A stretch of 64,000 nucleotides of DNA. It comes from Sulfolobales archaeon (GTDB taxonomy: Archaea; Thermoproteota; Thermoprotei_A; Sulfolobales; NBVN01). A program made the translations under genes and the position numbers. The stretch covers positions 14,217-78,216 of the forward strand of contig JAWBJE010000004.1 of the NCBI GenBank assembly GCA_038832865.1, written 5' to 3'. Numbering within the stretch: the first letter of the stretch is position 1; the number at the start of each line of letters is the position of its first letter. Shown piece by piece: positions 27,506 through 32,339 of the stretch. The notes under the pieces were generated by a model. The model saw only the letters and a list, made by a program, of their open reading frames with translations, searched no databases and was not told the DNA's origin.

Positions 27506-28738
27506 TTACTGCTTAAGTAAGCTAACACCTCTTTCTCCAGGTCCTACGTGACCATACCTTGTTTGAACTATCACTGTCTTTAGACCTACACTCTCTAGAG
27601 CCCTCTTGACACTAAGCATCTCGCTAGCTGTAGGGCGCCTTATCTCCCTTCTTCTGAATGCTGGAAAGTAGTCTAGCACGGTCACTTGGATCCCTGAGTC
27701 TATGGATGCTATCCTCTCACCTGCTTCACATATCTCCTCTATCGATACGAGGTCCGCGTTGTAGACTAAGCCTACTCCGAGGTAGACTCTACCTGCGTAG
27801 TTCTCGTATACGTACTCTATAGACCGCCAAGACGTCTCGAGGTACCGAGACGCTAGTCTCTCGTCGGAAACACCGGTGATTTTCATGTAGGTCTCTACTC
27901 GAGCACACTTAGGCTCTATGCCTATGTTGTTGCAGCCGGCTTCAACGAGCTCGTCTATGTAGTCGCGGGTTAGTACGGTCCCGTTACTGTCTAAGTGCTT
28001 TCGCACACTGGGCTTAACCCTCTTATTTACTTCCTTAAAGAATTCTATTAGCCACCTTCTGTTTATTGCCGGCTCTCCACCACTTACAGCAATGCCCTTA
28101 GTTGAGTAAGCTCTATGGCACTCTACTGCTAGTTTAGCTGCTTTAGCGGGGTCTAGTGGTGTAGTAGTGTTATCGTAGGTTACGTGATAGTTCTGGCACT
28201 GGGGACACCTAAGGTTACAGCCCGCAACCCAGATTGCCGCTTCTACGTAGTTAACGTAGTCAACCTCCCACCACGGTGTAGCCTTACCACCGACGGTGTG
28301 TGGCTCGGGTCCGTGAACTATCCTCAAGGGATTACGCCTCTCTACGTCGGTCTCGATTCTCATCCCGCTTCGGACTGGTGTAATGCAGGATCTCTCAATA
28401 GACCCGTCTATGATTACCGCACAGCTCCAGCATCCTCCAGTCTTACACGCGAGACTGGGCTTCTTCGAGCTCGGCTCGTCAAAGGTGTACCCTAGGTACT
28501 CTAGAGCCCTTGCCACAGTGACTCCGCTAGGTACTCTAGTCTTCACACCGTTGACGCTTACGTCTACTAACTCTACCCTTTTCTCCTCCTCAACGACGTA
28601 CCTAGCACTATAAGGGCAAGCCCAGAAGCAGGACAGACAGCCGCAGCAAGACGCAGGAGAGTGACAGGTGTTAACGTAGGTGCAGAAACCGCATCCAGCA
28701 CACTTGGAGTAATCTACTTCAACGCGTTTGACCCTCAC
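27506..28738 (-). CDS. radical SAM enzyme with N-terminal ferredoxin-like Cys-rich domains
   Basis: CNLRCPQCQNY (CxxxCxxC) plus GIAVSGGEP. N-terminus has CAGCGFC...CGCLSCFWACP and CKTGGCWSCAV...C (2Fe-2S-ferredoxin-like). Confidence 0.8.
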   Translation of the reverse strand: MRVKRVEVDYSKCAGCGFCTYVNTCHSPASCCGCLSCFWACPYSARYVVEEEKRVELVDVSVNGVKTRVPSGVTVARALEYLGYTFDEPSSKKPSLACKTGGCWSCAVIIDGSIERSCITPVRSGMRIETDVERRNPLRIVHGPEPHTVGGKATPWWEVDYVNYVEAAIWVAGCNLRCPQCQNYHVTYDNTTTPLDPAKAAKLAVECHRAYSTKGIAVSGGEPAINRRWLIEFFKEVNKRVKPSVRKHLDSNGTVLTRDYIDELVEAGCNNIGIEPKCARVETYMKITGVSDERLASRYLETSWRSIEYVYENYAGRVYLGVGLVYNADLVSIEEICEAGERIASIDSGIQVTVLDYFPAFRRREIRRPTASEMLSVKRALESVGLKTVIVQTRYGHVGPGERGVSLLKQ

Positions 28739-28975: not shown

Positions 28976-30042
28976 TTAGGAACCGGTCGTTACGCCTCCT
29001 TGCTCTTGTCTTTTCTTCCAACTCTTCGGGTAAACACCCCTCTCCATAACCACGCGTACCGTCTTGAACGCTACTCCTCGGTTGTTTGCTAGTACTTCTT
29101 CGGTTGACATGAGTGCTTCAGCTAGCGCCACCAGCTCCCCCTTGAGTGTTAGTAGCGCCACCAGCTCCCCCCTCTTTATTCCCTCTGGGATTACTGAGAC
29201 TCCCGGTACAGCCAGGTCGGCACCGTAGGATACGGCTGCCGCAGCGCCGTCAAAGATGAGGACCTTAGGTAGATGCGACACTATATACTCCTGCGGTAGT
29301 ATCATGGACTTCAGCCTGTCTTCGCGACCAAGCTCTCTGTACATGTATACGGCTTCCGAGAGGTCATGCATTCTTACGGACCCCTCCTCTCTAAAGGGTC
29401 CAGTCCTCACTCTCCTAAGCTCCCTCATGTGAGCTCCAACGCCTAGAACTTCACCGATATCGTGTATGAGCTTCCTAACGTACGTCCCATGCTGGCAGGC
29501 CACTCTCATTAGTGCGTAAACCCCCTCGAACTCGAGCACCTCGATGCTGTACACCTCCTTGACCCTAAGCACTCTCTTGACGGACGACCTAACGGGTGGT
29601 TTCTGGTATATCCTCCCCACGAACTCTCTTACCACTTCCTCAAACTTCTCTCTAGATACTTGAGAGTGTAGTTGAGCGAGAGCTACGTACTCCTTACTAG
29701 AGTGAGATATCACCCCGATCAGCTTAGTGGCTCTATCTAAAGCTATAGGTAAAACACCGGATACCTTGGGGTCTCCCCGCCCCGTCGGGGCTCTAGGGTA
29801 CCCCCGTGACCAGCTTTAGGCACACGCAGGAGGTTCTTAACCCAAGCAACAACCTCATGACTAGTAGGTCCGGGAGGCTTGTCTAAGTTTATTATACCGT
29901 ACCTAAGGAGCTCGTCGATTGTTCTGGAAGTAGGTGGCTTACCGTAGCTAGGATCAGTCTCTCCCTCCCTCTTTACTACGTACTTCCTCTCGATACCGGC
30001 GAACCTGTCTAACTCCATGATGAATCTCAAAGCGTTCTCCAA
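28976..30042 (-). CDS. cbf5: tRNA/rRNA pseudouridine synthase Cbf5 (TruB family), split by a 20-nt intron (exon 1 29793..30042, exon 2 28976..29772)
   Basis: The two ORFs (29743..30042 and 28976..29713) carry the N- and C-terminal halves. Removing 29773..29792 restores [29 protein letters not shown], including the catalytic GTLDP motif. The combined length of 1047 nt gives 348 aa. An alternative start is the ATG at 30018. Confidence 0.88.
29773..29792 (-). other. bulge-helix-bulge (BHB) mini-intron in cbf5 pre-mRNA
   Basis: In the RNA, a 4-bp central helix CCCU/GGGG is flanked by two AGA bulges on opposite strands, with an inner hairpin GCCCC-GAC-GGGGC. Cleavage after the 2nd bulge nucleotide removes exactly 20 nt. 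The junction is ambiguous by up to 2 nt because of the repeated AG. Confidence 0.75.
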
Positions 30043-30114: not shown

Positions 30115-30444
30115 TCACTCTCTAGATACCAGTGTAGAGACTACCATAAGCTCTTTCCGTCCGACCCTTACTTTCTCCTTCATGAAGTCTACGAGTCCGG
30201 CGGCCTCAATAGCCTTAAGCACCTCTTCGTCGGAGGCCCCCTTAGGTATCTCGACCTTCTTATCTAAGATCTCGATGTGCTTAACGTTAACCCTCCTCCT
30301 CTTGACACCCGTAAGGCTCTTAGGACCCGTAACTACGACGAAGTTGTCGTCAACCAAGTCCACTATGACGGCCTTTCTCCCAGCTTCTCTCCCAGCGATC
30401 TTAACGCATATCCTACCAACTTCTACCACGGGCACCGCCACCAC
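30115..30444 (-). CDS. rpl14e: 50S ribosomal protein L14e
   Basis: [23 protein letters not shown] (KOW motif). The start was placed at one of three GTGs (30444/30441/30435), downstream of a TATA-like CTTTTAAG at 30466-30478. The ORF is open from 30486. Confidence 0.85.
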
Positions 30445-30947
30445 CTCGTAGAAGTGAGAGCATGAGCTTAAAAGTTCTTCAAGCATTACGCACAGGGGAA
30501 CGGCGAACCGACTAACGGGAATTCACTCGCTACATACGGTCGCGACAAATCATGCAGAAGCACATCACTGGTATTGGGGTCTGTAAGGTCGAGTGAGGCG
30601 TACGTCAAGCAGGCCCTTAGCAACAATGCTCGCATTGGTTACGACGAACCCAGTACTGGAACTAGCCGTGCTATGTAGTACAACACCCCCAGGATACATT
30701 CAAATTTAAAGACATGCTGAGGTGGATGAAGAGTTCGGTAGAGTATGATGCTGGTAGGGTCTGAAGGTTGAGATGAAGACGTATATAGCTGCTCTTTGAT
30801 GAAGATGAAGTAGAAGCGGAGGAGGCTCAAATAAATGCTGCAAGAGGCAGGTATATCGAGTCTGTCGACTTGAGGACGAAACTCTTAAAGATTGTTGAAA
30901 CTTCTAAAGGGAGCCTACACCGTAGCACATCGGGTCCGTCTCTTCAT

Positions 30948-32339
30948 TTATACTGGTTTCACGTACCCCCACTTCTCTAGGGCTTTCCTTAGCTCTACGT
31001 GGTCTTCGGCGTACTGGTCTAGAGGTATTCCCTTCGAAGCCGCTTCGATGGCTTGCCTGACAGCTGCTGCACCAGCTCTAGGTCCCTCGGGGTGACCTAC
31101 CACACCACCGCCTACCTGTATCACTATGTCTAAACCCATGTGTCTTATCACCTCTGGTAGGGTTCCTGGGTGAAGACCTCCGGAGGCTACTGGAATAGCT
31201 GGCTTTATGTGATAGAAGGGCTGAGGTAGGTGAGTGAGATCGTCAGCGGCCGGCTTAAAGTATCTGTCTCTGAGTACAGAGCAGTTCAGTATTACGTCAG
31301 CTGTTTTAGCTTCGAGCTTACCTACTTCAGGTGTACCCACGTGTAGCTGGTCTACACCTACTACCCTGAATAGTTTGGCTAGAGTAAACATGGAGATCCC
31401 GTGGTCAGGGTTTCTGGTCATAGCTGCGTGCATTGCTCTATGAGCGTGAATCGCTAGTCCGTACTCCTCAGCTAGGTCCCGAACGTAAGTCAGCGACGAC
31501 CAGCCCGCTATAACTACGTCAACCATCACGTAGGGGTTTCCGTAGTCCGCGACTAACTTCATTCTTCTAGCCATCTCTCTAACGTCGGCCGTTACGTTGG
31601 CGAACCAAACCTTCCTCTCACCCGTCTCTTTCTCAGCTTTATCTATAGCCTTCATAACGCTCTTCGCTCTGGCCTCAAAAGTGCAGAACTTAGGGCTCGC
31701 CAGGTTTTCATCGTCTTTGACGTAGTCTAGACCGCCCACTAGTATTTCGTAAGCTAGCTTCTCTACTTCCTCCGGTGAGTAGCCAACTTTCGGCTTGGGT
31801 ACGGTTCCAACTACTGGTCTATCGAACACTTTAAGAATCTCTCTCACACCGTTCAGCCCCTTAAGCGGCCCCTTGAAGAACTCGAGGAACTTCTTAGGCA
31901 AGTAGATGTCCTCTATCCTCAACCACTTAACCCTCCTCATACCGAATATGTTTCCAGCCACCGAAGCTAGAAACGCCGGGATGTTTCCCTCCTCGAATAG
32001 CTCCACGGGGTATGCTACTCTCACTAAAAAGCTGCTACCTAAGTTAAGCATTTCGTACGCTCTACCCATAAGCCTTAATAGCCTAGACTCATCGTACCAG
32101 GCATAGAGGGTCGTCCAAGTTCCGACACTACTTTCAGCAGCAACTCCACCGGCAGCATCCTCGATAGTAAAGCCGGGGGCTGGAACAATCTTAAAGTTGA
32201 CGATCACGAACTCTTCCGGGTCCGGTCTAAAGCTTTTGTCTACGAATAGGTGGTACGGCTCAAACTCTTTCTGAGTCACATTTATCTCCGATACCGGGTC
32301 TGCGCCACCTATATAAGGTTTCGAGGAACTATTACGCAT
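30948..32339 (-). CDS. rbcL: ribulose-1,5-bisphosphate carboxylase/oxygenase, form III large subunit
   Basis: Collinear with archaeal form III RbcL: AAESSVGTWTT, GNIFGM, VPKPKVGYSP, YVKDDENL (carbamylated Lys), HAHRAMHAA, ASGGLHPG, QVGGGVVGHP. The likely true start is the GTG at 32279, which gives MTQKEFEPY. Confidence 0.95.
   Translation of the reverse strand: MRNSSSKPYIGGADPVSEINVTQKEFEPYHLFVDKSFRPDPEEFVIVNFKIVPAPGFTIEDAAGGVAAESSVGTWTTLYAWYDESRLLRLMGRAYEMLNLGSSFLVRVAYPVELFEEGNIPAFLASVAGNIFGMRRVKWLRIEDIYLPKKFLEFFKGPLKGLNGVREILKVFDRPVVGTVPKPKVGYSPEEVEKLAYEILVGGLDYVKDDENLASPKFCTFEARAKSVMKAIDKAEKETGERKVWFANVTADVREMARRMKLVADYGNPYVMVDVVIAGWSSLTYVRDLAEEYGLAIHAHRAMHAAMTRNPDHGISMFTLAKLFRVVGVDQLHVGTPEVGKLEAKTADVILNCSVLRDRYFKPAADDLTHLPQPFYHIKPAIPVASGGLHPGTLPEVIRHMGLDIVIQVGGGVVGHPEGPRAGAAAVRQAIEAASKGIPLDQYAEDHVELRKALEKWGYVKPV
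32309..32318. promoter_or_regulatory. shared palindromic TATA element (CTATATAAGG) between divergent rbcL and e2b2 genes
   Basis: About 30 nt from the rbcL GTG at 32279 on the minus strand and about 41 nt from the TTG at 32358 on the plus strand. It is the only A/T-rich element in the 78-bp spacer. Confidence 0.5.

Follow-up and report, generated by a model that had tools for sequence, protein, structure and literature searches.

A 20-nt relaxed bulge-helix-bulge intron proposed within the catalytic aspartate codon of cbf5 in an uncultured Sulfolobales archaeon

A cbf5 gene in two reading frames

The window analysed here is a 64,000-nt stretch of a Sulfolobales genome, and the cbf5 gene on its minus strand is divided between two open reading frames in different frames, as a first-pass annotation of the same DNA had described. 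Exon 1 (29793–30042, minus strand) starts with TTG at 30042, with an alternative in-frame ATG downstream at 30018, and its product comprises the DKCLD domain and the first part of TruB_N; the last residues are ...AGHGGTL, after which comes the G that opens the codon for the catalytic Asp. Read without splicing, this frame goes on as EPRRGGETPRYPVFYL and meets a stop at 29743. Exon 2 (28976–29772, minus strand) lies in another frame and opens with AC CCC AAG, the first two bases completing the Asp codon; it runs to the end of the stop codon and encodes the remainder of TruB_N, TruB_C_2 and the PUA domain. The two exons are separated by the 20 nt of the proposed bulge-helix-bulge (BHB) intron, AGCCCCGACGGGGCGGGGAG (29773–29792, minus strand). 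When 29792 to 29773 are deleted, G29793 meets A29772 and the codon G|AC is rebuilt as the catalytic Asp of GTLDP, giving GTLDPKVSG within one joined frame of 1047 nt, that is, 348 amino acids plus stop. The predicted spliced junction is ...GGUACCCUAG joined to ACCCCAAGG, with 20 nt removed, and the gene should be annotated as join(30042..29793, 29772..28976), minus strand.

The interrupted gene is cbf5, which encodes the archaeal H/ACA pseudouridine synthase. A domain search of the spliced product returned DKCLD, TruB_N, TruB_C_2 and PUA in this order. The product scored 442 bits against the NCBIfam Cbf5 equivalog NF003280 (cut-off 242; model positions 2–322 of 323) and 417 bits, above the cut-off and over the full length, against TIGR00425. 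The assembly, a metagenome-assembled genome (MAG) of 1.28 Mb in 28 contigs and ~81% complete, contains only one cbf5; at this completeness, a second copy without the intron is conceivable in the unassembled part. The upstream neighbour (30115–30486, minus strand) is a KOW-domain or ribosomal protein L14e-like gene with weak matches to KOW and Ribosomal_L14e, both below the Pfam cut-offs, and the same L14e-like neighbour stands beside cbf5 at a related locus (L034).

The predicted RNA fold and its cut sites

The RNA of 29798–29768 (minus strand) reads, in order, CCCU, AGA, GCCCC, GAC, GGGGC, GGGG, AGA and CCCC; both this string and the ...AGHGGTL end of exon 1 were found exactly as first reported. 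The central helix H is formed by CCCU in exon 1 (29795–29798, minus strand; codons ACC CUA) and GGGG within the intron (29775–29778, minus strand), a pairing drawn from the fold and from relatives. Bulge 1, AGA (29792–29794, minus strand), carries the predicted 5' cut between G29793 and A29792. It is followed by the inner hairpin h' (29779–29791, minus strand), in which GCCCC and GGGGC enclose a GAC loop in the minimum-energy fold. Bulge 2, also AGA (29772–29774, minus strand), carries the predicted 3' cut between G29773 and A29772, the latter being the first base of exon 2. The outer helix h joins GGGG in the Gly codons of exon 1 (29801–29804, minus strand) to CCCC in the Asp and Pro codons of exon 2 (29768–29771, minus strand; fold and relatives), with UA (29800–29799, minus strand) left unpaired between the outer and central helices.

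The minimum-energy fold of 29815–29755 (−31.2 kcal/mol) includes the 4-bp CCCU/GGGG helix and the 5-bp GCCCC/GGGGC hairpin, both as previously proposed, together with bulge 1. In the same fold, the outer helix takes the register GGGGU/ACCCC with a 1-nt A bulge, and A29772 pairs with U29800, which leaves bulge 2 with 2 nt; in the alternative register, GGGG/CCCC, bulge 2 becomes a 3 × 2 internal loop. The first-pass annotation had drawn two 3-nt AGA bulges, of which the first is retained in full in this fold. It had also called the outer helix imperfect and the motif a relaxed BHB, and this holds, whereas its outer register, GGGG/CCCC with the UA unpaired, is not that of the minimum-energy fold. 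The motif is a relaxed BHB in either register, because the outer helix is imperfect. It lies outside the strict hBHBh' definition, in which both 3-nt bulges are closed outside by uninterrupted helices: bulge 1 is properly closed by h', and the interruption sits on the outer-helix side.

The intron borders obtained from the bulge rule, with cuts between the second and third bulge nucleotides, are the same as the borders that restore the frame; in other species, cDNA has verified this rule. The earlier claim that cuts placed in this way remove 20 nt and restore GTLDP and a single 348-aa frame was thus reproduced by computation. Since AG is repeated at both borders of the intron, four cut registers yield an identical spliced sequence, and AG|A was chosen at both sites by the bulge rule. 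Compared with 200 shuffles of this G+C-rich stretch, the fold has a z score of −2.0, and 7 of the 200 shuffles were as good. Taken alone, the fold of this sequence thus exceeds the shuffles by a small margin, and the case against chance rests on comparison with relatives.

Junctions in related genomes and the splicing enzymes

We used the spliced protein as a query in 40 related genomes and, in addition, performed a pattern search with one genome per GTDB species, taking as the junction of each locus the deletion that restores G-x-GTL-DP-xxx-G. Among 76 distinct cbf5 junctions, an insert of 12–47 nt occupies the same nucleotide position in 42, and the other 34 lack one; a comparison of intron position and length with other cbf5 genes had been proposed with the original prediction, and this result agrees with it. 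Exon-1 matches in the relatives end at query residues 85–92. In all 42 inserts, the 4 bases before bulge 1 pair at 4/4 positions with the 4 bases before bulge 2. Bulge 1 is AGA in 36 of these distinct junctions, AGU in three and UGA in three, and bulge 2 is A-N-A in 40 of the 42. The terminal stem between the helices is very variable in sequence and length. Across the 42 junctions, the constrained elements are the central helix, the bulges and the base of the hairpin, and the free elements are the hairpin interior and the total length (12–47 nt). The Thr-Leu codons that supply the exon strand of the central helix are ACC CUA in every intron-bearing gene of the Desulfurococcales type; in the 34 intron-less genes they are free (ACG CTG, ACT CTA, ACA TTA and others).

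Of the species in the window's genus, six have a 20-nt intron, two an intron of 22–23 nt and one an intron of 47 nt, which contains a 15-bp hairpin. In the nearest relative (L004; 93% protein identity), the hairpin is GCCCU/AGGGC vs GCCCC/GGGGC in the window, a double compensatory change. Covariation was evaluated on a core alignment of fixed length, comprising 39 distinct sequences, whose columns were set solely by distance from the splice borders. In this alignment, 94.1% of the cells were paired, as compared with 85.4% in shuffles (0 of 500 shuffles as high), and 40 cells were changed on both sides, as compared with a shuffled mean of 8.3. When the partners were slid by 1–3 columns, only 39–64% were paired. 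The central helix H was paired in 100% of cases in the 39 sequences, and the inner hairpin h' in 96.9% of its cells, with compensatory changes in five of five tested pairs. The outer-helix register GGGG/CCCC was 84.6% paired across the relatives, and the register differs between lineages.

The nearest named relatives of the organism are Desulfurococcaceae, Desulfurococcales and Sulfolobales MAGs from hot springs. In a tree of Cbf5, the window falls in a family clade of 31 members, every one with the intron, which is nested in an order-level clade of 37 intron-bearing and three intron-less members. The Thermoproteales are uniformly intron-less on this tree and are separate from the well-supported clade of the window. 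Intron presence on the tree requires at least five changes, three of which are forced by well-supported branches.

The genome also encodes the enzymes that such an intron would need, namely an RNA ligase and an (αβ)2 EndA that has the Crenarchaea-specific loop. Two proteins with the tRNA_int_endo domain are present: EndA α (175 aa), the catalytic one, with S. tokodaii 2cv8 and A. pernix 3p1z_B as its best PDB matches, and EndA β (190 aa), with A. pernix 3p1z_A and 3ajv_A as best matches and weak scores against the NCBIfam subunit-beta models. EndA α aligns without gaps with the A. pernix protein, placing K31/R33 on K44/R46 of the Crenarchaea-specific loop. Experiments have shown that this loop enables the enzyme to cleave motifs that are relaxed or misplaced (Hirata et al. 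2011, PMC3241643). An intact RtcB ligase is present as well (587 bits).

We propose the following scheme. The cbf5 gene would be transcribed as a single RNA, in which CCCU at the end of exon 1 pairs with GGGG close to the 3' border of the insert. The GCCCC/GGGGC hairpin would stack on one side of this helix and the imperfect exon-exon GGGG/CCCC helix on the other, so that the two AGA bulges may be displayed on opposite strands, 4 bp apart. The (αβ)2 tRNA-splicing endonuclease would cut after the second nucleotide of each bulge, that is, after G29793 and after G29773, and RtcB would ligate the exons, creating the G|AC catalytic aspartate codon and the 348-aa Cbf5. Unspliced RNA could yield just a 99-aa fragment without the catalytic residue. 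For the transcript of the window, cutting and ligation are proposed by analogy with Aeropyrum, Sulfolobus, Desulfurococcus, Staphylothermus, Acidianus and Ignisphaera, for which cDNA and in-vitro cleavage were reported (PMC2738675). Any regulatory role of the intron would likewise be putative.

Alternatives to RNA excision

The DNA presents two ORFs in different frames, and gene callers treat cbf5 as broken. Among 5.8 billion proteins searched, all matches at or above 79% identity are 239–265-aa exon-2 products without the N-terminal DKCLD domain, in keeping with the earlier expectation that automated annotation would split the gene. Close relatives are recorded solely in this form, one such exon-2-only product being named Cbf5 by NCBI; for close relatives, the same collection contains no spliced product of full length, and full-length Cbf5 matches begin at about 60% identity. 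These records would fit a pseudogene, or two independently translated polypeptides of ~99 aa and ~245 aa; a search for contig records encoding the 245-aa exon-2 ORF returned none. We consider a broken gene very improbable, since this cbf5 is the only one in the assembly and the catalytic Asp in its GTLDP context is absent from either fragment. Decay is further contradicted by exons that are stop-free across at least 40 genomes, with the break always at the same nucleotide, and by an insert under RNA-pairing constraint, which a decaying lesion would not be. An artefact of sequencing or assembly, such as a spurious 20-nt insertion at the GC-rich hairpin, deserves mention because the genome is a metagenome-assembled draft in 28 contigs and because the cbf5 of the closest relative (G002) is divided between two contigs at the same spot. 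We regard this as the most improbable reading of all, excluded for practical purposes because independent assemblies from different studies and sites, as well as Sanger-sequenced isolates, share this exact insertion point, while the inserted sequences differ by lineage. The insert is likewise present in genomes of the same order that are assembled into one and two contigs (G038 and G027).

The insert could alternatively stay in the RNA, with the ribosome changing frame (−1/+2) or hopping over the 20 nt by translational bypass. Owing to the AG repeat, an intact GAC directly follows the insert, and a frame change inside the insert would still reach ...GDPKVSG. A frameshift would, however, lengthen the catalytic motif by 6–7 residues, placed between GTL and DP. 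The homologous inserts fall into all three length classes modulo 3 (13 distinct cases in class 0, 11 in class 1 and 18 in class 2), with an in-frame stop in all 13 of class 0, a pattern that no one rule of recoding accommodates. Conservation is seen in the base pairing, with its compensatory changes, and not in a slippery site or a pair of take-off and landing codons, and RNA splicing has been seen in the cDNA of related species. Recoding of this kind is thus extremely improbable, slightly more so than a broken gene. We also searched JGI metagenome contigs with a degenerate 35-nt pattern of the spliced junction, with 0 matches; the unspliced pattern also gave 0, the genus being absent there. 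Taken together, excision from the RNA would explain the conservation of the insert, its length classes and its stops, which frameshifting and decay do not. We conclude, with a probability of roughly 0.9, that the 20 nt are an archaeal BHB intron of the cbf5 pre-mRNA and the ortholog of the one described in the Desulfurococcales and Sulfolobales.

Known introns and a possible wider distribution

Introns of 16–44 bp that interrupt the codon for the catalytic Asp are known from cbf5 of the Desulfurococcales and Sulfolobales (Yokobori et al. 2009, PMC2738675). The BHB motifs are unconventional in most of them, and the predicted cuts fall between the second and third bulge residues; splicing was confirmed by cDNA in several species; 20-bp introns occur in Acidianus ambivalens and A. 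infernus; and the intron has been lost in the Pyrodictiaceae and Ignicoccus (PMC2738675). The cbf5 intron was also described by Watanabe 2002, as cited in PMC2738675. The first-pass annotation had presented the phenomenon as known, naming these two works, and both citations are right in substance, the 2009 paper giving the same codon, size range and lineage. Reviews of 2020 and 2023 still give cbf5 as the coding-sequence example.

The intron of the window shares with the published ones the gene, the site in the Asp codon, the relaxed BHB, the cut rule, the host clade and the (αβ)2 EndA; its 20 nt lie within the 16–44 bp range and contain no ORF. It differs in its host, an uncultured hot-spring MAG genus outside the 43 species surveyed, in its lineage-specific hairpin sequence, and in the range of 20–47 nt within the genus, slightly above the published maximum. 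Splicing of several published introns was confirmed by cDNA, whereas that of the window's intron is predicted from its sequence anatomy, its relatives, the enzymes and experimental precedent. As it fits every point of Yokobori et al. 2009, it is a further example of the known cbf5 intron, a fresh instance of a textbook rarity and no new kind of element.

The BHB and non-canonical BHL introns in tRNA and rRNA of Crenarchaeota (Marck and Grosjean 2003, as cited in PMC7714728; Hirata et al. 2011, PMC3241643) have the same geometry, with a 4-bp helix between two 3-nt bulges, and the same enzymes, EndA with the Crenarchaea-specific loop followed by RtcB. The cbf5 substrate differs from them in being the coding sequence of an mRNA, which places the exon strands of its helices under codon constraint as well, and it has no tRNA body aiding recognition. 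In Haloferax volcanii, the intron of HVO_1309 (Schwarz et al. 2020, PMC7714728) is likewise a case of an mRNA cut at a BHB by the tRNA splicing endonuclease, which is described as the α2 type in this species (PMC10485636). Unlike the cbf5 intron of the window, it lies in the untranslated 5' leader of a euryarchaeal gene and interrupts no codon.

A genome-wide scan with a BHB descriptor and ORF merging, which is unspecific, gave 791 raw and 158 filtered candidates, recovered cbf5 and revealed no convincing second mRNA intron. The joined translations of the ten best other candidates look like junctions of neighbouring genes and not like split genes; examples are an oxidoreductase followed by a small translation-factor-like gene, neighbouring subunits of a membrane complex, and the L14e-like gene followed by cbf5. 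No RNA genes were detected in the window by Rfam at gathering thresholds or by ARAGORN.

Inserts at the same nucleotide of the Asp codon were also observed in more distant genomes. Four Hecatellales/Bathyarchaeia MAGs have inserts of 21–23 nt with near-canonical hBHBh' motifs and outer helices of 7–8 bp, and one Parvarchaeum and one Nanoarchaeota MAG have inserts of 12 nt with a stop inside and BHB geometry. At slightly less than even odds, the intron of the window may belong to a family that occupies this one nucleotide well outside the Desulfurococcales and Sulfolobales. If the Hecatellales- and DPANN-type inserts are truly spliced, the published single origin in the ancestor of the Desulfurococcales and Sulfolobales would be incomplete, and the intron would have either a much greater age, with numerous losses, or a history of repeated gains at one site.

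The intron of the window leaves knowledge of the mechanism unchanged. For annotation, gene callers that miss it produce a truncated Cbf5 without the N-terminal domain and the context of the catalytic motif. For the biology of the lineage, an uncultured hot-spring genus probably joins the short list of archaea with protein genes that need tRNA-type splicing.

Insertions at the Asp codon outside the reported lineages

The catalytic Asp codon of cbf5 was interrupted at the same nucleotide as in the window in four Hecatellales/Bathyarchaeia MAGs, hosts that lie outside the lineages for which a cbf5 intron is reported in the literature consulted. The insert was 23 nt long at three of these cbf5 loci (L056:169-191, L069:1094-1116 and L079:1401-1423) and 21 nt long at the fourth (L058:1403-1423), where it has an in-frame length and contains a TAA. 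The inserts have a near-canonical hBHBh' geometry with an outer helix of 7-8 bp, as exemplified by the junction GGGGGGA-CCUU-AGA-hairpin-GGGG-AAA-UCCCCCC.

A 12-nt insert was found at the same nucleotide in one Parvarchaeum MAG and one Nanoarchaeota MAG (L072:1412-1423 and L073:1412-1423; AAGAUUGAAGAA and AAGCCUGAAGAA). Both inserts carry an in-frame TGA and form the central helix CUUU/GAAG with the bulges AGA and AAA, and a 5-nt loop replaces the inner hairpin. The cbf5 genes of their nearest relatives in the Cbf5 tree (L071, L074 and L077) have no insert.

A long intron and a contig break within close relatives

Within the window's own genus, one species harbors a 47-nt cbf5 intron (L008:1452-1498, equivalent to L036:1395-1441), which exceeds the 44-bp maximum of the 2009 survey (PMC2738675). 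Its inner hairpin extends to 15 bp, and the BHB core is unchanged. In the closest relative, G002, cbf5 is split over two contigs exactly at the intron, with the pieces located at the end of contig C3 (about 100709-100750) and at the start of contig C8 (3-346), and it seems that the assembly stopped at or near the G+C-rich hairpin.

Genes surrounding cbf5 in the window

Directly downstream of cbf5 (27506-28738, minus strand) lies a gene for a radical SAM protein of 410 aa, in which a 2Fe-2S (Fer2_4) domain at the N-terminus is accompanied by a 4Fe-4S cluster domain. A 463-aa ORF (30948-32339, minus strand) that neighbors the L14e-like gene contains GGLDYVKDDENL and resembles a RuBisCO large subunit, a putative assignment based on its sequence. 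The approximately 460 nt between the L14e-like and RuBisCO-like genes (30487-30947) include no notable ORF, and neither Rfam, at gathering thresholds, nor ARAGORN returned a match there.

Uninterrupted cbf5 genes in the same order

Within the same order, three genomes from families f2 and f9 encode cbf5 without the intron, with the uninterrupted junctions at L011:1741/1742, L015:1744/1745 and L019:2273/2274. Their Thr-Leu codons (ACG CTG, ACG CTC and ACT CTA) differ from the ACC CTA of the intron-bearing Desulfurococcales-type genes. The intron's secondary loss from cbf5 has been described for Pyrodictiaceae and Ignicoccus (PMC2738675), to which the three genomes may belong, and the intron-less genes with their different Thr-Leu codons are consistent with such secondary losses.
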